52,998 nt of DNA from the NCBI GenBank assembly GCA_003555075.1, contig PWHW01000005.1, positions 1-52,998 on the forward strand, written 5' to 3'. Under the pieces are notes generated by a model. That model made no database searches. It was given only the letters and a program-made list of their open reading frames with translations, and had not been told where the DNA came from. The DNA is from Candidatus Nealsonbacteria bacterium (GTDB lineage: Bacteria > Patescibacteriota > Minisyncoccia > Minisyncoccales > PWPS01). Shown piece after piece: positions 10,654 to 50,178 of this stretch. The first letter of the stretch is position 1, and each line of letters starts with the position of its first letter. A program made the position numbers and the translations under genes.

Positions 10654-11740
10654 ATGGAAATAGATAAAGAAATAAAAGAAATTGAAGATAAGATCCTCCA
10701 AATGGAGGAGTGTCTTTGACCTTCAATGCAAAAAAGACAGGATCAACAAGGAGCAGAAAGAACTTGAAGATGCCGATCTCTGGAATGAAAGCCCGGAAAT
10801 TGCTGTAAAAAAGCAAAAGGAGGTTTCTAGGTTAAAAAAGGAAGTGGAGGGATTGGAACATTTAAAAAGCAAACTGAAAGAGATAAAGGATTTTTATTTT
10901 GAAGCACAAGAAGAGGAAGATCTGCTTCCCGAGATAGAAAAAGAGCTTTCGACTTTAAAAGATGCATTAAAAAAAGAGTGGACAAAAGTATTTTTGTCCG
11001 GGAAATTTGACAGAAAGGATGCCGTGGTGGAGATATTTTCCGGGGCTGGAGGGCAGGATGCCGAGGATTTCGCGGCTATGCTTCTTCGTATGTATTGCCG
11101 TTATGCAGAAAGGAGAGACCTGAAGAGTAAGGTAATATCTGCTTCTTATGGAAGTTCTGGGGGGCCCGAAGGAAGAACGGGAATAAAGAGTGCCTCCTTG
11201 GAAGTGAAGGGTGATTACGCTTTTGGACTTTTAAAGAGGGAGCGGGGGACTCATAGGCTCGTGAGGAAATCTCCTTTTTCTTCCTCGGGCACGAGACATA
11301 CTTCATTTGCGCAGGTTGAAGTTTTTCCCATAATAAGTAATACTGACTCCCAGGTAGAAATAAAAGAAGAAGATTTAAGAGTTGATACTTTCCGCTCTTC
11401 CGGTCCGGGGGGGCAGTATGTGAACAGAAGGGAGAGTGCGGTGAGAGTTACTCATATTCCGACGGGATTAGTGGTGGTTTCGCAGAACGAGAGATTGCAG
11501 GGGGAGAATAAAAGAATCGCGATCAATGTTTTAAGGTCGAAACTTCAGCGAATGAAAGAAGAAAAAGAAAAAAAGGAGGCAGAGAAGGCAAAGGAAGATA
11601 CGTTTGGCTCTAGCTGGGGAACTCAGATAAGGAATTATGTTTTGCATCCTTATAAGTTAGCAAAGGATTTACGTACGCAAGTGGAAACGTCCAATGTAGA
11701 AGAAGTGTTGGATGGAAATCTTGACTTGCTAAAAGAATGA
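10654..11740 (+). CDS. prfB: Peptide chain release factor 2 with programmed +1 frameshift
   Basis: ATG 10654 gives MEIDKEIKEIEDKILQMEECL, then CTT-TGA-C at 10714-10720; the +1 frame continues with DLQCK; SPF and GGQ motifs present. Confidence 0.95.
10703..10720 (+). promoter_or_regulatory. prfB +1 frameshift cassette (internal SD + CTTTGAC)
   Basis: TGGAGGAGTGT-CTT-TGA-C matches the canonical RF2 shift site. Confidence 0.92.
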
Positions 11741-18025: not shown

Positions 18026-18417
18026 AAAAAGAGCTTCATTTCTCTACTATGGAAAGATACGAGTTTCTGGATATTACTTCCTCTGTAAAGGAAGTTATAA
18101 GGGAGAGCGGAGTAAAAGAGGGGATGGTCTTGGTATTTTCTTTACATTCTACGGCGGCGATCATGATAGCGGAAAACGAAGGTGGCCTCCTGAAGGATTT
18201 TAATAAATTTTTTAATGAGATCGTTCCCGATGCCGATTTTTTACACGACAAAATAGATAATAATACTGATTCTCACATTCTTGCGAGTATCGTGGGGCAG
18301 GGAGAGTGTTTGCCTATTGGGGAAGGTAAGTTGGAACAAGGGACTTGGCAGAGCATTTTTCTTGCTGAATTTGATGGACCAAGAAAAAGAAAAGTGCTTA
18401 TAAAGGTCATAACATGA
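18022..18417 (+). CDS. yjbQ: YjbQ / UPF0047 family protein
   Basis: DIT, HSTAA...ENE, N.DSHI and GTWQ.IFL.EFDGPR motifs. Confidence 0.9.
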   Translation: MKKELHFSTMERYEFLDITSSVKEVIRESGVKEGMVLVFSLHSTAAIMIAENEGGLLKDFNKFFNEIVPDADFLHDKIDNNTDSHILASIVGQGECLPIGEGKLEQGTWQSIFLAEFDGPRKRKVLIKVIT

Positions 18418-19316
18418 ACAATCCTTCTTATCTCAGTCTTTCCTCTAAGGAACTTGAGTCAAGATCCGAGAGGGCATTTAGCTTGCTCTCTTGCTGCAAT
18501 ATATGTCCTCGTAATTGCAGGATCAACAGAATCAAGGGAGAGAGGGGGTGTTGCGGTATTGGGGCGAGACCCACTGTTTCTTCTTATTTTCCTCACTTTG
18601 GAGAAGAGAAGGTTCTTACGGGAAGACATGGGTCGGGAACCGTTTTTTTGACAGGATGCAATCTATCTTGCGTATATTGTCAAAATTACGAGATCTCTCA
18701 AATGAAGGTAGGGGAGGAGTTTTCTTTTGAAGGGCTTGCGGAGATCATGGTGTCTCTTCAAAGAAAGGGATGTTGTAATATAAATTTTGTTACTCCCACC
18801 TCCCAGGTTCCTGCCATATTAAAATCACTTACTTTTGCCGTAAAAAAGGGTTTAAATATCCCGCTTGTTTATAATACCAATGCTTATGACTCGGTTGAAA
18901 CGCTGGAACTTTTGGAGGGTATATTCGATATATATATGCCTGATATGAAATATCACGGAGAACAAGAGGCACGTAAATATTCCAAGATTTCCGGTTATCC
19001 TCGGGTTGCGCAAATTGCCATAAAGGAAATGCATAGGCAAGTAGGAGATCTGAAAGTGAACCGGGAGGGGGTAGCAAAAAAGGGACTTCTTGTAAGGCAC
19101 CTTGTTTTGCCCAATGATTTATCAAAGACCGAAGGTGTACTTCGTTTCATAAAAGAAGAGGTGTCCGAGAATACCTTTATCAATATAATGGGGCAATACA
19201 GACCTTTTTATAAAGCTTTTGATCATCCTGAGCTCTCAAAGGCAATAACTTCTCGCGAACATCGAAGATATGTTGAGTTTGCAGAACAAATAGGCCTTAA
19301 AAGGGTTTATTCTTGA
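18414..19316 (+). CDS. PflX-like radical SAM protein
   Basis: N-terminal CNICPRNC, HFGEE, GSGTVF, CNLSCVYCQN, DIYMPDMKY and VRHLVLP motifs. Confidence 0.88.
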   Translation: MNNPSYLSLSSKELESRSERAFSLLSCCNICPRNCRINRIKGERGCCGIGARPTVSSYFPHFGEEKVLTGRHGSGTVFLTGCNLSCVYCQNYEISQMKVGEEFSFEGLAEIMVSLQRKGCCNINFVTPTSQVPAILKSLTFAVKKGLNIPLVYNTNAYDSVETLELLEGIFDIYMPDMKYHGEQEARKYSKISGYPRVAQIAIKEMHRQVGDLKVNREGVAKKGLLVRHLVLPNDLSKTEGVLRFIKEEVSENTFINIMGQYRPFYKAFDHPELSKAITSREHRRYVEFAEQIGLKRVYS

Positions 19317-20694: not shown

Positions 20695-21450
20695 ATGCAG
20701 GAATTTTCCAAAAAATTAGTAAAAAGGGCGGGAGATAAGCTTCTCTCTCAATTCAAGGAAGAAAAAAGGCTTCTTTCGGTAAGAAAAGGAAGCAAGGAGG
20801 TGGTTACCAGATATGACAAGGAGATGGACGAATTCCTTATAAAGGAAATAGAAAAGAAATATCCTAGGCACAGTCTTTTGACCGAAGAGTCAGGCCTTAA
20901 TGACAAAGGTTCCGATTACCTTTGGATAATAGATTCCTTGGACGGAAGTGGAAATTTTGCGAACGGCAACCCTCTTTTCTCCATTTGTATCGCCCTCCTT
21001 CATAAAGGAGAGATCATTATGGGATTAACTTATGCTCCCGCCATTGATGAGTTCTATTTTGCGAGAAAAGGAAGGGGTGCCTATTTGAATGAGAAAAAAA
21101 TAGAGGTTTCGGAAGTGGATAGGCTGAAGAGGTCCTATATTGCTTTTTGTGACGGATTTGAAAAAGACAAAAGGAAGCTCTCGAAAAAGCTCTCCAAGAT
21201 ATTTGAGAATGTTATAGACTTAAGAAAAATAGGTTCTGCGGGGGTGGAAACGGGCTGGGTTGCCTCGGGTAGGATGGACGGATTTGTTATGTTTCAGGGA
21301 GATCCTTGGGATATTGCTTCCGGAGTTATCATTACCGAGGAGGCCGGAGGAAAAGTTACTGATTTTGACGGAAAATTCTGGCAAAACCGAAGAGGTGACT
21401 TTCTGTTTTCCAATGGAAGGATACATGAGAGCTTGAGAAAAATTGTTTAG
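20695..21450 (+). CDS. Inositol monophosphatase family protein (SuhB/FBPase-like)
   Basis: VT..D, TEES, WIIDSLDGSGNF and PWDIASG...EEAGG motifs. Confidence 0.88.
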   Translation: MQEFSKKLVKRAGDKLLSQFKEEKRLLSVRKGSKEVVTRYDKEMDEFLIKEIEKKYPRHSLLTEESGLNDKGSDYLWIIDSLDGSGNFANGNPLFSICIALLHKGEIIMGLTYAPAIDEFYFARKGRGAYLNEKKIEVSEVDRLKRSYIAFCDGFEKDKRKLSKKLSKIFENVIDLRKIGSAGVETGWVASGRMDGFVMFQGDPWDIASGVIITEEAGGKVTDFDGKFWQNRRGDFLFSNGRIHESLRKIV

Positions 21451-21968
21451 TCCTGGTATTTTTTGGCTTGAAAACGAAAAAGGGACATTTTTTCCTTCTG
21501 TGGGTTTATTCCCGCTTTTTTGCATGCAGTGAGGATTTGTTCTTCGGGAGTATCGATTCCTTCAAGACCTGGAAGAAGAAGACTCTTTCGAAAGGATCTT
21601 TCTCCTTTCACTATAATGCCGTATCTTGCGGGGTCCAGATTTCCCAGGTCTTCTATTTGCTCAGGTTCTTCCAGGATATGAACTTCATAAGAGAGAAGAG
21701 GGAGCTCCTCTTCTTTTATGGGGCCGAAGCGGTCATCTTTGGAGGCGGCCGCTATTGCGTTATGAATTATTTCACTTGCAAGACTCTCTTTGGTGGGCAA
21801 GTAAGTGCCTATGCACGCTCTGAGCTTACCCTCTTTTTTAATGGTCACAAAAACTCCAGCTTTTCTTTTTAAAAGTTCCTCGGGCAGATCTTCGGAAGGA
21901 TTCATTATAACACCCTCTCTTACGAATTTTTCTACCGCGCTCTTTGTTATTTTCGTGTAATGACTCAT
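21447..21968 (-). CDS. amrA: AmmeMemoRadiSam system protein A (AMMECR1 domain)
   Basis: GVFVTI, LRACIGT, AAA..DDRF, LLLP and KKAG motifs. Confidence 0.9.
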   Translation of the reverse strand: MSHYTKITKSAVEKFVREGVIMNPSEDLPEELLKRKAGVFVTIKKEGKLRACIGTYLPTKESLASEIIHNAIAAASKDDRFGPIKEEELPLLSYEVHILEEPEQIEDLGNLDPARYGIIVKGERSFRKSLLLPGLEGIDTPEEQILTACKKAGINPQKEKMSLFRFQAKKYQD

Positions 21969-22594
21969 AATTCAAAACCCGCTACAAGATAGCCGACGCC
22001 GAAGGGTCCCTCGTAGGAAAGAATCCGCGGGCGATAACTCTTTTCTTTCACTTCGACTCTTCTCTCCAGGATGCCAAGCAGGAAAGAAAAAGAGCGTAGT
22101 CCGCATTCTCCGGCTTCCGGATACTTACGATCAAGCTCCAGAATATTTTTTACATCTTTCCTTTCCAGGGCTCTTATGAGCTCCTTGTCAAATTTTTCTC
22201 CATCTGGATGGTAATCATAAGGCCCTTCATTCTTTAGTCGATGCGAGAGGTCTCCACTTGCTATTAATGCCACTCCTCCTCTGTTCTTTATTTCAAGATC
22301 GTAGATTTCTTTTCCTTTTTTGAAATGCCCTTCAGGATCTTCGGTGCCGGTGAGGTGTGTTACAACCTTTCCTTGAAATTTTTCCGCCAAGAAAGAAAGA
22401 GGAACATTGAATCCCCAGTCGGGGTGGGGAGAAGAGATAAGAATGCTTTGCGGAGACACTTTTTTTAGTTCTTCTCCTAAAGCATTCAAATTTTGAATAG
22501 TATTCTTGACTTTTTCTCTATCCTCTTTGGATCCTATGGAGGAAAGTAAGATCGGGGGATGGGGAGTTATGGCGGCAAAAACGATATCAGGCAT
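21965..22594 (-). CDS. AmmeMemoRadiSam system protein B (Memo/LigB-like, shortened)
   Basis: PHPPIL, SPH, IASGDLSH, AGECG and YEGPFGVGY motifs. Confidence 0.85.
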   Translation of the reverse strand: MPDIVFAAITPHPPILLSSIGSKEDREKVKNTIQNLNALGEELKKVSPQSILISSPHPDWGFNVPLSFLAEKFQGKVVTHLTGTEDPEGHFKKGKEIYDLEIKNRGGVALIASGDLSHRLKNEGPYDYHPDGEKFDKELIRALERKDVKNILELDRKYPEAGECGLRSFSFLLGILERRVEVKEKSYRPRILSYEGPFGVGYLVAGFEL

Positions 22595-22609
22595 AGCCGG
22601 ATAATTTAT

Positions 22610-23629
22610 TTAATTATTCAAAATGATTTCCATAGGCTCTCCGCAAGAAGAACAAGTTCCTTTCTTGTCGTGTCTTTCTATCTTAAAGCCCGCTCTTTCG
22701 ATAACCATCTCTCCGCATTCGGGGCAATAAGTGTCCTCAAGTGAATGTCCGGGTGTATTGCCTAAATATACATACCTTAACCCCTCCTCTTTTCCTATTC
22801 TGTGGGCCCTTTCCAGCGTTTCAAGCGGAGTGGGAGGGAGGTCCTGTAATTTCCAAGATATATCTCCCGAAAAACGACTTATGTGCCAAGGAGTTTCCTC
22901 TCCGAGCTCTCTTGCGATGAATTTCGCTATATCTCTAAGCATTTCCTCTTTATCGGAAAGAGTGGGAATGGAAAGAGTTGTTATTTCGGTCCATATTCCG
23001 TTGTTCTTTAGTGTTTTTGCGGTTTCAAGAACCGGATCGAGTCTTGCTCCGCAATTAGATTTGTAAAACTCCTCTGAAAAACTTTTTATATCTATATTAA
23101 TGGCATCAAGGTAAGGGATAATTGCTTCTCTTGTCTCTTTTGTCATGAATCCGTGGGAAACGAAACAATTTTTTATTCCTTCTTCTTTTGCAAGTTTCAT
23201 GATATCGAGAGCATACTCCAAAAAGGCGAGGGGATCCGTGTAGGTGTAAGAAATGCTTGGAACGGAATTCTTTTTTGCTATTTTTATCACTTCTTCCGGA
23301 GAGACCTCACTACCCGGTATATCATCTGACATCTTTGGGCCCTGAGATATGTCGAAATTCTGACAATTCTTACAGGAAAAAGAGCATCCGGCGGCGCCTA
23401 TTGAAAAAGAAGGTGTTCCCGGCAAGAAATGGAACAAAGGCTTTTTCTCTATGGGGTCAATATTCATTGCCGCAGCTTTTTTGTGATTAAGAGAGAACAG
23501 TTTCCCGTCTTTGTTCTTCCTTACTCCGCACTTCCCCTTTTCTCCGGAAAATATGACACAAAAGTGTGCGCAAGTGCGACATTGCACCTTCTTTTCTTTT
23601 AATTTTTTATATAGATATGACTCTTTCAT
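22610..23629 (-). CDS. amrS: AmmeMemoRadiSam system radical SAM enzyme
   Basis: CRTCAHFC, G.CGVR, DPIEKKPLFHF.PG, CSFSCKNCQN, YVYLGN and C-terminal CPEC...CSSC motifs. Confidence 0.93.
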   Translation of the reverse strand: MKESYLYKKLKEKKVQCRTCAHFCVIFSGEKGKCGVRKNKDGKLFSLNHKKAAAMNIDPIEKKPLFHFLPGTPSFSIGAAGCSFSCKNCQNFDISQGPKMSDDIPGSEVSPEEVIKIAKKNSVPSISYTYTDPLAFLEYALDIMKLAKEEGIKNCFVSHGFMTKETREAIIPYLDAINIDIKSFSEEFYKSNCGARLDPVLETAKTLKNNGIWTEITTLSIPTLSDKEEMLRDIAKFIARELGEETPWHISRFSGDISWKLQDLPPTPLETLERAHRIGKEEGLRYVYLGNTPGHSLEDTYCPECGEMVIERAGFKIERHDKKGTCSSCGEPMEIILNN

Positions 23630-26835: not shown

Positions 26836-26901
26836 TCTTTTTTGTCAATGATTTCTCGTTTACATCACTGGAATTTTTAAATAGAATAAAGCAAAAATCG
26901 A

Positions 26902-27894
26902 ATGATGAAGGATATAATTTCTAAAATAGAGAAGGAGGGGATCTTGGGAAGAAGTGGCTCCAATTTCCCTGTACACTTAAAGTGGGAATCGGTGAAAAAA
27001 GAGAAGGCGGAAAAGAAGTATGTTGTTTGCAATGCTGCCGAAGGGGAGTTGGGTGCTTTCAAGGATCTCTTTATACTGAAAAATCATTCTCGTTATGTGA
27101 TAGAAGGAATAAGGGTTGCTATTGATTATCTTTCGGCTGAAAAAGGATATATCTATCTCAAGAAAGAATATTTTGAGGAGGTTCACGATTTACTCAAAGA
27201 AGAGATCGGTAATGACGAGATCGAGATCGTTAAAAAGAAGGGTGGTTATATTGGAGGAGAAGAAACAGCCCTGATCAAAGTTATAGAAGGTGGTGTGCCC
27301 GAACCTCAAAAAAAACCTCCTTTTCCTACTCAAAAGGGGCTTTGGGGGTATCCCACACTAGTGAATAACGTGGAGAGTTTTTATTGTGTGGGAAAAATAA
27401 AAAGAGAGGAGTACGAGAAAGAAAGATTCTACTCAATTTTCGGAGACGCTCCGAATAAGGGGGTGCATAAGTTGCAAGGGGGGATCACCATAAGAGAGAT
27501 ACTTGAAAGTACGGGCAACGTACCTGATTTTGAGTATTTTCTTAAAATAGGAGGTGGTGCTTGTGGGATAATAATGCTCCCCGAAGAACTGGATGTTCCC
27601 CTGAGAAGACTTGGTGTCATAATGATCTACAAGAAGGAGGGATTAGACTGCTATGCCTTGATGAAAAAATGGGTTGATTTTCTTCTTGAGGGTAATTGTG
27701 ATAAGTGTACTCCTTGCAGAGAAGGGCTTTACAGGATAATGGAAATGATCGAAAAGAGGGACATGGAAGGGGTGGAAGACATGCTCTTTGCCATGGAAAA
27801 GACCAGTTTTTGCCCACTAGGAACATCTGCTGCCACTTCGCTTAGGAGTTTTCTTGAAAAAGTATTGAAGAATGATCATGAAAATAAAAATTAA
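26902..27894 (+). CDS. Minimal NuoF-like flavoprotein subunit (HydB-like)
   Basis: GRSG..FP..KW, CNAAEGE, GGEETAL, P.KPPFP, NNVES, SLBB domain, CDKCTPCREG...SFCPLG [4Fe-4S] motif. Confidence 0.85.
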   Translation: MMKDIISKIEKEGILGRSGSNFPVHLKWESVKKEKAEKKYVVCNAAEGELGAFKDLFILKNHSRYVIEGIRVAIDYLSAEKGYIYLKKEYFEEVHDLLKEEIGNDEIEIVKKKGGYIGGEETALIKVIEGGVPEPQKKPPFPTQKGLWGYPTLVNNVESFYCVGKIKREEYEKERFYSIFGDAPNKGVHKLQGGITIREILESTGNVPDFEYFLKIGGGACGIIMLPEELDVPLRRLGVIMIYKKEGLDCYALMKKWVDFLLEGNCDKCTPCREGLYRIMEMIEKRDMEGVEDMLFAMEKTSFCPLGTSAATSLRSFLEKVLKNDHENKN

Positions 27895-29572
27895 CGGAAA
27901 GAAACTTTTGGCAAAAGAAGGAGAAACCATTCTTGATGTTTCCAAAAGGAACGGTATTCATATTCCCACTCTTTGTTATCATTCTGATGTGACCATTAAA
28001 GCCAGTTGCAGGGTTTGCGTAGTGGAGGTCAACAGGGAAGAGCTTTTGCCTTCTTGCTCAACCAAAGTACAGAATGGAATGGTAGTAGAGACTGACACCT
28101 CTTCTGTCAGAAGGGCGAGAAAGATAAACTTGGAGTTACTTTTTTCCCAGCACCAAGAAGAGTGTCACGATTGCATTTGGAACCTCAATTGCAAGATGCT
28201 TGATTTTGCAAAGGAATATAAAGTAAAGATCAATAAGTTCAAGGATAGAAAGGATCATTATCCGGCATATCGGTTTGGATGCTCTTTGGAATTTGATTCT
28301 TCAAAGTGTATAGATTGTAGGAATTGCATCGAGATCTGCAAAGAGCAAGGCGTGGGATTTTTAGAAATGAGGGGGAAAAGTCATTTAAGAGAGGTATTTC
28401 CTTCGGAAAGGAAGGATAAGGACTGTGTTCACTGTGGTCAGTGTATAAACCACTGTCCGGCTGGCGCGTTTGAGGCGGTGGGGGAGTTTGAAAGAACGGA
28501 AAAACCTCTCAAGAAGGAGGAGATTACACTGATCTTTCAAATAGCTCCGGCGGTGAGAGCCGCCATAGGGGAGGAGTTTGGACTTCCTGCCGGATTTAAC
28601 CTTATGGGGGAACTTGTATCTTCTTTAAGGCAGCTGGGAGGAGACAATATCTTTGATGTTCCCGTGGGAGCGGATATTACAACCATGGAGGAGTCAAAAG
28701 AATTCCTTAAAAGAACGGAAGAAGGGGGTTTGCCATTACTTACTTCTTGTTGTCCTTCGTGGGTCAGATTTGTTGAATTCTATTATCCGGAATTCATACC
28801 ACATCTTACCACCGTACGTTCTCCCCACATTATTCTTGGCAAGCTTATAAAGGAATATTTTTCTACCAAAAAGGGTGTTGATCCTCAAGAACTGTTTCTT
28901 ATTTCCATCATGCCTTGTGTGGCAAAGAAACATGAGATAGAGAGAGAGGAATTGGCAGAGAATGGGGTAAGGCCGGTTGACTATGTAATGACCACCAGAG
29001 AAACAGGTAGGCTTTTAAAGAAAAATAATATCAAGCTCAAAGGGATGGAAAAGGGACGAACAGATGATCCTTTTGGAGAGGCTTCTTTTTCGGGAGTTTC
29101 TTACGGTGCAAGTGGCGGGGTTATGCAGTCCGCTATTTTCAATATCATTGGCGAAAGAGTGCAGTTCAAAAAGGTTAGTAGCGGTTTAGCGGAAGCAAGT
29201 ATTTCCTATAAAGGAAGAAACTTAAGGCTTGCAGTGGTTCATGGATTAAAAAATGCAAGGAATGCACTAGAGGGGTTAAAGAAAGATCCCAAGAGATACG
29301 ATTATGTGGAAGTGATGGCTTGCCCCGGGGGATGTATAGGAGGAGGCGGACAACCCGTGCCTACCTCTGAGAGTATGACTAAAGAAAGAAGGGCCGGTCT
29401 CCGGAAAGCCAGCGAAGATAAAGAGGTTTTGAAAGCAAAGGATAATCCCGTAGTAAAAAAGGTATATGAAGAAATACTGACAACGGAAAAAGAAATATCA
29501 AGGATCTGCCATACAAGGTATCATGAAGCATCCAAAACTCCTTTATATAAAAATAAAAGGAATAATAAATAA
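27878..29572 (+). CDS. hydA: [FeFe]-hydrogenase catalytic subunit, group A (2Fe-2S, His-ligated 4Fe-4S, 2x4Fe-4S, H-cluster domain)
   Basis: H-cluster motifs TSCCPSW, MPCVAKKHE, EVMACPGGCIGGGGQP; IPTLC...CRVC; HQEECHDC.....C; two CxxCxxC ferredoxin motifs. Confidence 0.93.
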   Translation: MKIKINGKKLLAKEGETILDVSKRNGIHIPTLCYHSDVTIKASCRVCVVEVNREELLPSCSTKVQNGMVVETDTSSVRRARKINLELLFSQHQEECHDCIWNLNCKMLDFAKEYKVKINKFKDRKDHYPAYRFGCSLEFDSSKCIDCRNCIEICKEQGVGFLEMRGKSHLREVFPSERKDKDCVHCGQCINHCPAGAFEAVGEFERTEKPLKKEEITLIFQIAPAVRAAIGEEFGLPAGFNLMGELVSSLRQLGGDNIFDVPVGADITTMEESKEFLKRTEEGGLPLLTSCCPSWVRFVEFYYPEFIPHLTTVRSPHIILGKLIKEYFSTKKGVDPQELFLISIMPCVAKKHEIEREELAENGVRPVDYVMTTRETGRLLKKNNIKLKGMEKGRTDDPFGEASFSGVSYGASGGVMQSAIFNIIGERVQFKKVSSGLAEASISYKGRNLRLAVVHGLKNARNALEGLKKDPKRYDYVEVMACPGGCIGGGGQPVPTSESMTKERRAGLRKASEDKEVLKAKDNPVVKKVYEEILTTEKEISRICHTRYHEASKTPLYKNKRNNK

Positions 29573-29573
29573 T

Positions 29574-30086
29574 ATGAGATCAAAAACCATTGTTTTCCGT
29601 AATATTATTACCAAGGAGGCGATATCTTTTGTTTTTTTGACGGGAGCCGCTGTTCTTGCTCCTCTTCTTGGAGTACAAGCAGTAACAGGTTCCGTAGTTA
29701 ACGCTACACTATTCTTGGGTGTTTTACTTACAGGAGTCCAGGGAGCGGTATTCGTTGCTATATTTCCCAGCTTGATAGCACTTTCTTCAGGCCTTTTACC
29801 GCCCGTCCTAGCCCCCATGGTCCCATTTATAATCATGGGAAACGTGATCCTGATATTTACCTTTGATCACTTTAAGAATCATTTCTTAAGGGCAGTGCTT
29901 GTCTCCTCCTTTTTGAAGTTCGTATTTCTTTATTCTTCAAGCATCTTGGTGGTAGATCTTATTGCAAAGGAGGCAATTGCTTCCAATGCTGCTCTTATGA
30001 TGAGCTGGCCCCAACTTCTCACGGCTCTCTTGGGAGGACTGATCGCCGGATGTGTCTCAGGTGTTTTGAAAATACGAAATAATTAG
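29574..30086 (+). CDS. ECF transporter S-component-like membrane protein
   Basis: 170 aa with 5-6 TM helices; Q.VTG..VNA.L, PMVPFI..GN and WPQL.TAL.GG motifs; starts 1 nt after the hydA stop. Confidence 0.6.
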   Translation: MRSKTIVFRNIITKEAISFVFLTGAAVLAPLLGVQAVTGSVVNATLFLGVLLTGVQGAVFVAIFPSLIALSSGLLPPVLAPMVPFIIMGNVILIFTFDHFKNHFLRAVLVSSFLKFVFLYSSSILVVDLIAKEAIASNAALMMSWPQLLTALLGGLIAGCVSGVLKIRNN

Positions 30087-49095: not shown

Positions 49096-50178
49096 TTATT
49101 CTTCAATAACTATATCTCTATAATCTTCCCGCTCTTCGGCATCCCGAAGAGCGTTTATTATTTCGTCCAGATCTCCTTGAAGTATCTCTTCGAGTTTGTA
49201 CCAACTTTGGTCGATGCGATGATCTGTTACTCTGTTCTGCATAAAGTTGTATGTTCTTATTTTCTCGGCGCGCATCCCTGACCTTATCTGTGATTGCCTT
49301 TCCTTTTCTTCTTTTTCCCTTCTTTCTCTTTCTTTCTTTTCATGCAGCTTCGCTTCTAGGAGGGTCATTGCGATTTCTTTGTTTTGCTGAAGGCTTCTTT
49401 CGTTTTGCGAAGTTACGATTAGTCCTGTGGGGTCATGAAATATTCTTACCGCTGTTTCTCGGGTGTTGACATATTGCCCTCCGGGTCCGGATGCTTTGCA
49501 AGTTTGTACCCTTATATCCTTGGGATCGATCTTTATTTTTCCTTTCTTGGGTTCGGAAAGTACTGCAACAGAAACAGTGGAAGTATGTACTCTACCACCC
49601 TTTTCCGTTTCGGGCACTCTTTGTACTCTATGAACTCCTCCTTCATATTTCATGAGGGAGTAGGGGTCCTTATTCTTAAGCTTGGCTGTGACGGCTTTGA
49701 GGCCTCCTTGTTCTGTCTTGCTTTCATCGAGTATCTTGGTTTCCACCCCCTTGGATTCCAGATATCTCTTGTACATTTCAAGTAGTTCTGCCGCAAAGAG
49801 AGAAGATTCATCACCTCCCGCTCCGGCTCTTATTTCTATAATAGCAGTGTCCTTTTTTACATCTGTGCTTTCACCCCTCCCTTCCTTTTCGGCAATAAGT
49901 CTTTTTAACTCTTTTATTATTTCTTCTTTTTCCTTTTCTAATATCTCATTTTCTTCTTTCGCCATAAAAACGAGATCCTCATCGTCTCCCTCTTTTATCA
50001 CTTCCTTATTCTCGCTTAGCTTCTTGTTTGTTTTTTCCAGCTCGTTCTTTTTGGAAATTATTTCTTCCAATATTTTCTTTTTTTCACCCAAAGATTCCCA
50101 ATCATCGATCTCTTCCGGACGAGATAATTTATCCATCATCTCATCATATTCCTTTTGTATATTATCAAGTATTGTCAT
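49096..50178 (-). CDS. prfA: Peptide chain release factor 1
   Basis: EIRAGAGGDE, HRVQRVPET, GGQ and IRTYN...RVTDHR motifs. Confidence 0.96.
   Translation of the reverse strand: MTILDNIQKEYDEMMDKLSRPEEIDDWESLGEKKKILEEIISKKNELEKTNKKLSENKEVIKEGDDEDLVFMAKEENEILEKEKEEIIKELKRLIAEKEGRGESTDVKKDTAIIEIRAGAGGDESSLFAAELLEMYKRYLESKGVETKILDESKTEQGGLKAVTAKLKNKDPYSLMKYEGGVHRVQRVPETEKGGRVHTSTVSVAVLSEPKKGKIKIDPKDIRVQTCKASGPGGQYVNTRETAVRIFHDPTGLIVTSQNERSLQQNKEIAMTLLEAKLHEKKERERREKEEKERQSQIRSGMRAEKIRTYNFMQNRVTDHRIDQSWYKLEEILQGDLDEIINALRDAEEREDYRDIVIEE

Follow-up and report, generated by a model that had tools for sequence, protein, structure and literature searches.

Contig PWHW01000005.1 of Candidatus Nealsonbacteria bacterium (Patescibacteriota; GenBank assembly GCA_003555075.1) was analyzed over its full 52,998 nucleotides, hereafter the window, which make up one entire contig of a genome of 609,564 bases. 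This genome is split over 12 contigs, and its completeness is rated at 100% and its contamination at 0.83%. The subject of this work is a compact [FeFe]-hydrogenase module at positions 26902-30086 of this window, an interval filled by three plus-strand open reading frames (ORFs) of 330, 566 and 187 amino acids (aa) in the ORF listing. These encode, in order, a short NuoF-like flavoprotein (the β subunit), the hydrogenase catalytic subunit HydA, and a small membrane protein that we relate below to HymD. The genome yields none of the maturases HydE, HydF and HydG, a state that we find repeated across the sampled phylum. On the whole, we somewhat favor the reading that the module encodes a non-bifurcating hydrogenase linked to NADH, which works and obtains a complete H-cluster without these three proteins; our confidence in the electron donor and in the maturation route is lower than in HydA being a working hydrogenase. 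The features in question are the following:

26859..26887, plus strand: promoter-like site (TTTACA, 17-nt spacer, TAGAAT), a 10/12 consensus match only
26902..27894, plus strand: NuoF-like/HydB-like flavoprotein of 330 aa, with PF01512 and PF10589
27872..29572, plus strand: HydA, a group-A [FeFe] hydrogenase by its Pfam domains and motifs, 566 aa as an ORF, with a likely start at 27878 (564 aa)
29574..30086, plus strand: HymD-like membrane protein by atlas name and predicted fold, 170 aa when read from the ATG at 29574, within an ORF that opens at 29523

The original prediction, which was made from the letters of this DNA alone, described three tightly coupled genes, and the ORFs indeed lie as it had them: those of the NuoF-like protein and HydA overlap, and the membrane gene has its first in-frame ATG after the HydA stop codon (last base 29572) at 29574, directly behind it. 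The later HydA start is preferred because the database copy of the protein has 564 aa. As judged from this layout, the three genes are a real operon, predicted to be co-transcribed. The promoter-like site ends 15 nt 5' of the first start codon, a position that suits the start of an operon, though the region holds 5 such sites against 6.9 expected from shuffles, which is not above chance.

HydA and its NuoF-like partner

The H-domain of HydA (PF02906, Fe_hyd_lg_C) was recovered at 2.3e-84 (283.3 bits; cut-off 22.1), along with the Pfam domains Fer2_4, NADH-G_4Fe-4S_3, a 4Fe-4S dicluster domain and Fe_hyd_SSU. The protein is accordingly laid out as an N-terminal [2Fe-2S] site, a NuoG-type [4Fe-4S] site, two [4Fe-4S] sites, the H-domain and a C-terminus that resembles a small subunit. 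Among solved structures, it is most similar to 8a6t_A (7.1e-128), 7q4v_A (1.6e-126), 7p5h_A (4.7e-112) and CpI (4xdc_A, 2.2e-101). Its nearest database relatives, 60-66% identical, are named '[FeFe] hydrogenase, group A' and come from patescibacterial sources. The guess from sequence that the organism was probably a Patescibacterium fits the genome size of 0.61 Mb as well as the organisms named as sources of the nearest relatives of HydA and HymD.

The same prediction held that all three H-cluster motifs are intact, and each could be located in the HydA translation: TSCCPSW at residues 291-297, MPCVAKKHE at 347-355 and EVMACPGGCIGGGGQP at 480-495. The four cysteines that serve as cluster ligands are present in HydA, and so are the Cys of the proton relay, the MPCxxK lysine and the Met residues of the pocket, all at columns that are invariant in our alignment. 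The roles of these residues in the H-cluster pocket are those known from CpI, in which several of them contact the [2Fe] subsite only. Conservation extends to the long HydAs (n = 23; 34-55% overall identity) of a sample of 401 genomes drawn evenly from the phylum, hereafter the phylum sample: the relay-Cys/ligand-Cys pair of TSCCP is kept in 22/23, MPC likewise in 22/23, and KK...E, the E(V/I)MxC methionine and the two C-terminal cysteines in every one of the 23. Judging by these alignments, the active-site pocket is clearly under selection. Since the residues that touch the [2Fe] subsite are kept, and a protein that never met this subsite would have no reason to retain them, a never-supplied enzyme seems improbable; the near-invariant pocket makes these HydAs look like working hydrogenases matured by another route, and for the window HydA we consider a working hydrogenase probable.

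The contrary proposal is that HydA never receives the [2Fe] subsite and acts as an iron-sulfur (Fe-S) flavoprotein oxidoreductase, for instance between NADH and ferredoxin, or persists as a relic. Nar1/NARF, relatives of HydA that are not hydrogenases, provide the precedent, and such a fate would agree with a genome in which the maturases, the H-protein and the SufB/D core were all not found. The H-domain can, moreover, drift, as seen in a patescibacterial family of short proteins made up of the H-domain alone (f35, 279-290 aa). These keep the four ligand Cys and the Lys but show ASPCP in place of TSCCP (relay Cys to Pro) and GPC in place of MPC (Met to Gly), and their second pocket Met is replaced by Leu. 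The long HydAs of maturase-free genomes speak against such drift in their own case, having kept the relay Cys, the MPCxxKK lysine and the two pocket methionines across the range of identity given above. Likewise, in a tree of 100 H-domains (computed with FastTree and IQ-TREE), HydAs from genomes with maturases neighbor HydAs from genomes without, at 71-75% identity in the H-domain; the window HydA clusters there with two HymD-linked relatives at 99% support. Further, HydAs of maturase-free archaeal genomes gained activity upon artificial maturation, and H2 is produced by an archaeon in culture that has no maturases (PMC11216029). On this evidence, we regard a HydA without its [2Fe] subsite as unlikely.

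The β subunit (about 37 kDa) matches Complex1_51K (PF01512, 6.9e-36) and NADH_4Fe-4S (PF10589, 2.5e-12) and no further Pfam domain, and its best solved relatives are flavoproteins of bifurcating hydrogenases and of complex I (7t2r_B, 2.4e-45; 2fug_1, 6e-43; 7p5h_B, 8e-43). It comprises the FMN/NADH-binding domain and the N3 [4Fe-4S] site, with neither a NuoE-like part nor a C-terminal ferredoxin domain, and the window copy keeps GEETAL, NNVES and the CxxCxxC...C cysteines. NuoE as a separate protein is also missing: PF01257 has no match in the whole genome, and a NuoE gene stands at only four of 24 HydA loci. Bifurcating and non-bifurcating β subunits are told apart by HydB positions 232 and 234, by Phe or Tyr near the FMN (position 367) and by GGPSG (Losey et al., PMC7311640), where we equated position 367 by motif with the residue after GAGA, which is our own reading. 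At the signature positions, the window β has the non-bifurcating residues Lys (234) and Tyr, and it contains no GGPSG. Lys and Tyr are the rule among its short relatives: the 19 NuoF-like genes next to HydA divide into 16 short ones (325-358 aa) and three long ones (601-668 aa), with Lys and Tyr in 16/16 short forms and Met and Phe at the same positions in 3/3 long ones. The short forms retain GEETAL, NNVET and the N3 cysteines, and most of them GRGGAxFP. We infer from these residues that the β subunit is probably of a minimal, non-bifurcating type, but its Ala at position 232 and its degenerate Gly loop (see below) do not fit that type. A NuoE-free minimal β subunit is one of the new findings.

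As to the electron donor, it had been predicted that a fermentative symbiont disposes of GAPDH-derived NADH as H2, which might feed a host or partner. A link to NADH is plausible in view of the FMN/NADH motifs, the N3 cysteines and the glycolysis genes nearby, but NADH need not be the only donor, as the genome also encodes a two-subunit 2-oxoacid:ferredoxin oxidoreductase. In the relatives, the neighbors of HydA again include GAPDH/PfkB/FBA or ADP-forming acetyl-CoA synthetase.

As a separate observation on H-domain genes of the phylum, one genome with a long, NuoE-linked HydB carries them in tandem (L026, G096:C52). The first of the two has TSCSP, with the Cys at a ligand position replaced, together with MSC and GGGQP variants, and may be a sensory or degenerate paralog.

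Maturase genes in the genome and across the phylum

The original prediction had also noted that neither hydC/NuoE nor hydE/F/G lies in the window, and had seen a maturation puzzle that a set of hydEFG elsewhere in the genome would remove. The first point was confirmed by a scan of 51 window ORFs, none of which encodes NuoE or HydE/F/G. As for the second, hidden Markov model (HMM) searches of the whole genome returned no match for HydE or HydG, and for HydF only three matches to the GTPase domain at 50.2 bits or less (cut-off 325.55), while tblastn of a relative's HydE/F/G against the genome gave a best E of 0.26. The puzzle stands, and it extends across the phylum. An H-domain is found in 46/401 genomes of the phylum sample, as 24 long frames and 22 frames of about 280-310 aa (with none in the five same-order and 15 same-class genomes listed in that sample), and maturases are found in just one of these 46 (G029), with HydG at 544.5 bits, HydE above its cut-off at 296.8 bits and HydF near its own at 318.8 bits.

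A trivial explanation would be that hydEFG lie in unassembled or mis-binned DNA. The assembly behind the window has 12 contigs, and only marker genes enter into a completeness score. However, the absence recurs in 45/46 H-domain genomes, seven of which are single contigs (G024, G199, G214, G271, G174, G191 and G237), so that assembly gaps do not account for it, and HydG is likewise absent from 50/50 further genomes with a HymD gene. An assembly artefact is hence highly improbable. In G029, the three maturase genes form a single cluster (G029:C1:245-3920) with HydA on another contig, the H-domain of this HydA being 75% identical to that of a same-family relative without maturases; in a second maturase-bearing genome (G474), HydG lies directly 3' of HydA on the same contig (L164, G474:C43).

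One may ask instead whether an endogenous pathway of unrecognised genes builds the [2Fe] subsite, as has been proposed for archaea and is the explanation favored in print for both archaea and protists (PMC11216029). Two radical S-adenosylmethionine (SAM) genes near the operon had been read as PflX- and AmrS-type and not HydE or HydG. The one at 22610-23629 is AmmeMemoRadiSam (TIGR04337, 335 bits), which upholds that reading, but the PflX label for 18414-19316 could not be confirmed, this gene being a generic 'radical activating enzyme' present in many phyla. It is the sixth radical SAM gene of the genome, the other five scoring above curated cut-offs as MiaB, MtaB-like, NrdG, Elp3 and AmmeMemoRadiSam. 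The candidates for an endogenous pathway are this unclassified enzyme and the AmmeMemoRadiSam system, a trio of AMMECR1, a Memo/LigB-like protein and the radical SAM protein (21447-23629, minus strand) which lies 3-5 kb upstream of the operon. Neither recurs near HydA: the AmmeMemoRadiSam genes, the unclassified radical SAM gene and UPF0047 together gave one weak match in 123 HydA neighborhoods covering 1.2 Mb. A wider trawl for maturation candidates by ORF clustering of 24 neighborhoods returned only NuoF, HymD, NuoE, GAPDH, PfkB, FBA and ADP-forming acetyl-CoA synthetase beside HydA. A genome of about 0.61 Mb also gives such a pathway little room, and neither HypD nor the glycine-cleavage H-protein (GcvH) was found in it, the latter of which serves the dithiomethylamine bridge in the canonical route (PMC11736057, PMC12752695). 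Weighing both sides, we see an endogenous pathway as possible yet doubtful.

We found no statement in the literature on [FeFe] hydrogenases without HydEFG in Patescibacteria, the candidate phyla radiation (CPR) or Dehalococcoides, in a search that left subscription papers and supplements outside, so that one may be in print. Iron hydrogenase genes of Patescibacteria have been reported, without comment on maturases in the available portions of these papers (PMC4736985, PMC10811913, PMC9698310), and the available portions of two others make no mention of absent HydEFG (PMC2930330, PMC6383490). What is new is the extent of the maturase-free state in Patescibacteria and in genomes labelled as Dehalococcoidia; the puzzle itself is known from elsewhere.

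The HymD-like membrane protein

The third protein of the module has no Pfam or NCBIfam family above cut-off. A protein atlas assigns it (score 0.97) to clusters auto-named '[Fe] hydrogenase HymD subunit', and some sources name its homologs 'iron hydrogenase'. The HymD-like family amounts to 1,315 representative clusters at E <=1e-3, and 704 at <=1e-10. A first hint of its affinity comes from PF12822, the S component of energy-coupling factor (ECF) transporters: the window protein reaches 10.6 of the 30.7 bits required, 8/10 family members match when E is allowed up to 10 (best 2.9e-5), and many database homologs carry a precomputed PF12822 match. An AlphaFold model of HymD from a 34-sequence input (pLDDT 85.6) depicts a small multi-helix membrane protein. 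An exhaustive VIA structure search with this model against 48,161 chains returned ECF S components as all of the top 15, at Z 9.0-16.2, with the next match at Z 7.9. RibU heads the ranking (Z 16.2, rmsd 3.2 over 154 residues; a second RibU, Z 15.9), followed by PanT, ThiT, BioY, NikM/CbiM-type proteins, BtuM and FolT, with the hydroxycobalamin-bound BtuM 8ovv_A at Z 9.9. The top 11 matches of Foldseek are S components too (TM 0.43-0.68), with E >=0.1 and none at E <=0.001. On the strength of the model, the membrane protein is a HymD-like protein with a predicted ECF S-component fold.

Among the 24 HydA loci, a NuoF-like gene adjoins HydA in 19 and HymD in 10. The place of HymD varies between three orders, in which it follows HydA, precedes NuoF or stands in between, and since the order is shuffled while adjacency is kept, a functional link of HymD to the hydrogenase is argued. 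A HymD profile detected the protein in 28/401 genomes of the phylum sample, all of them within the 46 with an H-domain, and in 0/355 others; a relaxed search of the remaining 18 H-domain genomes added one further partial match. In a renewed sampling of the same phylum, in which contigs of the first sample recurred, a deeper profile found HymD in 24/401. Finally, a named species-level collection has 345 places that encode a HymD relative; among the best 80 of these, a HydA H-domain lies within 6 kb in 74 and a NuoF-like gene in 62, mostly in the order of the window, and none has maturases in its flanks. What might have passed for a peculiarity of a single operon is, with 74/80 further HymD loci next to HydA, a typical member of a widespread conserved module. 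HymD is also paired with the short H-domain proteins of family f35, a divergent HymD-like gene adjoining theirs in 6/8 loci (the L132-L139 set), as in this example:

L132:2266-3117, minus strand: short H-domain gene
L132:3163-3693, plus strand: HymD-like gene

DPANN archaea have 'ultraminimal group E' enzymes that average 286 aa (PMC11216029), a size which the f35 proteins match.

These observations bear on the proposal that HymD, as a solitary ECF-type S component, imports an external [2Fe] precursor or hands it to HydA, in place of HydE/F/G. The predicted fold is clearly that of an S component, with matches that include BtuM in its hydroxycobalamin-bound form, a protein that functions without an ECF module; and as EcfT (PF02361) has no match in the genome, HymD, if a transporter, would be solitary too. 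The confinement of HymD to H-domain genomes (28/28 in the phylum sample) and its pairing with both the long HydA and the 279-290 aa form in several gene orders point the same way. So does its relation to the maturases. HydG is found in 0/83 HymD-bearing genomes (28 of the phylum sample, 50 of those behind the 80 further loci, and five of a class sample of 151 genomes around a Dehalococcoidia-labelled genome), and HymD in 0/5 HydG-bearing ones (G029, G474, G530, G651 and G678, in the last of which HydA was also not found). As a chemical precedent, a synthetic [2Fe] cofactor supplied from outside activates apo-hydrogenase in living Synechocystis (PMC6243476).

Yet the mutual exclusion of HymD and HydG comes down to two independent contrasts on supported branches (sign test p = 1), with 24 rows of the HydA tree belonging to genomes not tested for HydG. 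Seventeen H-domain genomes of the phylum sample, four of them single-contig, have neither HymD nor maturases, so that HymD is not the general answer. Further, one atlas cluster of HymD is commonest in Bacillota, and, in a departure from its likeness to solitary S components such as BtuM, the HymD family alignment has no invariant Cys or His. We also know of no natural extracellular pool of a [2Fe] precursor. We therefore hold the replacement of HydE/F/G by HymD-borne salvage to be quite unlikely. The same low estimate applies to the broader picture in which scavengers (Patescibacteria, Dehalococcoidia-labelled genomes and perhaps DPANN archaea by way of 'hyd6TM') would take the precursor through HymD from HydEFG-bearing neighbors. 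Under the reading that we favor, HymD is an accessory partner of the H-domain which could act as a membrane tether or as a binder or importer of a small molecule, and the module is probably membrane-associated. New in this respect is the identification of a hydrogenase-linked membrane protein as one of predicted S-component fold, which tracks the H-domain and excludes HydG in the tested genomes.

The names attached to records give little guidance on who hosts the module. When proteins were searched with the HymD of a Dehalococcoidia-labelled locus, none of the best 120 matches bore the name of a cultured organism. Record titles and genome placement are in conflict in several cases: a record titled 'Pacearchaeota archaeon' (L102/G426) is placed in the phylum of the window, and module-bearing genomes of 0.7-1.1 Mb are titled Gammaproteobacteria or Nitrospirota, and one of 1.3 Mb Bathyarchaeia (among L057, L067, L072, L075 and L094). 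In view of this conflict, record names are unfit for inferring the host range of the module.

Electron path and relation to known hydrogenases

Under the reading that we favor, of a working NADH-linked hydrogenase, glycolysis would yield NADH, which would reduce the FMN of the short NuoF-like β subunit. Electrons would then pass from the N3 [4Fe-4S] cluster of β over the NuoG-like [2Fe-2S] and [4Fe-4S] clusters of HydA to the H-cluster, which would reduce protons to H2. Alternatively, HydA may draw on ferredoxin reduced by the 2-oxoacid:ferredoxin oxidoreductase. As no electron bifurcation would take place, the reaction would be favorable only if a partner or the community holds H2 very low. 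With HydE/F/G lacking from the genome, maturation would follow a route that these genes do not encode. We lean slightly toward a preformed or partly formed [2Fe] precursor taken from outside the cell, because a genome of 0.61 Mb contains no H-protein, no HypD and no unassigned HydE/HydG-like radical SAM enzyme.

The hymABCD operons, which go back to Eubacterium acidaminophilum and are annotated in Dehalococcoides mccartyi and Heliobacterium modesticaldum, share with the window the order of NuoF-like gene, HydA and HymD. In D. mccartyi, hymC and hymD are annotated as neighbors (PMC8516407), and hymD is listed for H. modesticaldum (PMC2887804). The window differs in lacking hymA, the NuoE-like gene, and in having hymB reduced to a NuoF core of 330 aa. 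A Dehalococcoidia-labelled locus (L103) has the full four-gene hymABCD layout (164, 412, 573 and 170 aa), and since it was picked up by a search with the HymD alignment, its HymD is clearly related to the one in the window.

Another close system is the dimeric HydAB of Syntrophus aciditrophicus (PMC7311640), which needs no ferredoxin to form H2 from NADH at H2 pressures of 2.2-40 Pa and was produced in active form in E. coli. Both systems have two redox subunits, a NuoF-type β and HydA, and the window β has two non-bifurcating signatures (Lys and Tyr) and no GGPSG. In contrast, the HydB of S. aciditrophicus is a 66 kDa protein with a fused NuoE/HydC-like N-terminal part (PMC7311640), which the window β does not have, and the window module departs from HydAB in its Ala at position 232 and its HymD partner. 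The bifurcating HydABC enzymes of Thermotoga maritima (7p5h), A. woodii (7q4v) and T. kivui (8a6t) offer the closest solved HydAs, with the same domain order; but HydC is missing from the window, whose β is also devoid of the cluster domains at either terminus, the Met (234), the Phe (GAGAF) and the GGPSG. The lack of HydEFG beside a HydA is shared with the enzymes of archaea, Giardia and Entamoeba, the lineages here being Patescibacteria and Dehalococcoidia-labelled genomes. In archaea, a full maturase set is present in just 5/130 HydA-bearing genomes, for which an alternative maturation pathway was proposed with reference to Giardia and Entamoeba (Cell 2024, PMC11216029). The archaeal 'hyd6TM' of that study fits HymD by its description, on which the likeness rests, and the available portions of its text assign it no fold or role.

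Several points weigh against a working NADH-linked hydrogenase completed without HydE/F/G. HydA falls short of the pertinent NCBIfam models, scoring 590.4 bits with the best of them, NF040763 (group A6, NADH-dependent; cut-off 765), and 395 bits with TIGR02512 (group A; cut-off 405.95). Although the alignments are full-length, these scores are the reason why we place HydA in group A by its domains and motifs and not in the A6 model. In the β subunit of the window, the Gly loop that binds FMN is degenerate, with GRSGSNFP for the usual GRGGAGFP, and the Ala at T. maritima HydB position 232 is the bifurcating pattern instead of Thr/Ser. We know of no characterised hydrogenase that runs on a NuoF core without any NuoE-like domain, and, as the HydB of S. 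aciditrophicus retains its fused NuoE-like part, a NuoE-free β goes one step beyond the characterised enzymes. On the energetic side, formation of H2 from NADH only is uphill unless H2 stays below about 60 Pa (PMC7311640). As for maturation, our slight preference for an external precursor argues from missing genes. Finally, a SufB/D core was not found in the genome, where NifU/IscU-type systems were not searched for, which leaves even ordinary Fe-S cluster assembly unexplained.

Maturation without HydE/F/G is a puzzle that has been raised for Giardia, Entamoeba and, in 2024, archaea, and it is met here across a bacterial phylum, in 45 of its 46 sampled H-domain genomes. For this puzzle, HymD is a concrete and testable candidate, being conserved, hydrogenase-specific and predicted to have the fold of a vitamin-uptake subunit. 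To our knowledge, a NuoF core of 330 aa joined to HydA without NuoE is the smallest NADH-type hydrogenase module to be reported, and such a NuoE-free module bears both on how much of the NADH module of complex I is needed and on minimal catalysts for H2. If the enzymes work, Patescibacteria would be sources of H2 in anoxic communities and would depend on their partners twice over, for the removal of H2 and perhaps for the cofactor. Were the salvage of a precursor to be true, the [2Fe] subsite of the H-cluster would be a shared, vitamin-like good of the community.

Beyond the module, the window contains housekeeping genes and a glycolysis block with enolase, iPGM, GAPDH, acetyl-CoA synthetase, PPDK, a PfkB kinase and FBP aldolase (FBA). 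The Fe-S proteins encoded by the genome despite its lack of a SufB/D core are HydA, the NuoF-like protein, the 2-oxoacid:ferredoxin oxidoreductase and the six radical SAM enzymes. Two genes for class-I release factors, each with PCRF and RF-1 domains, lie at 10682-11740 (plus strand) and 49096-50178 (minus strand), and every window ORF is open under translation table 11, with no hint of a recoded stop codon. As a pointer to habitat only, near-identical DNA (0.41-0.86 of sampled words) is present in soda-lake metagenome runs of three studies, besides three possible source runs.

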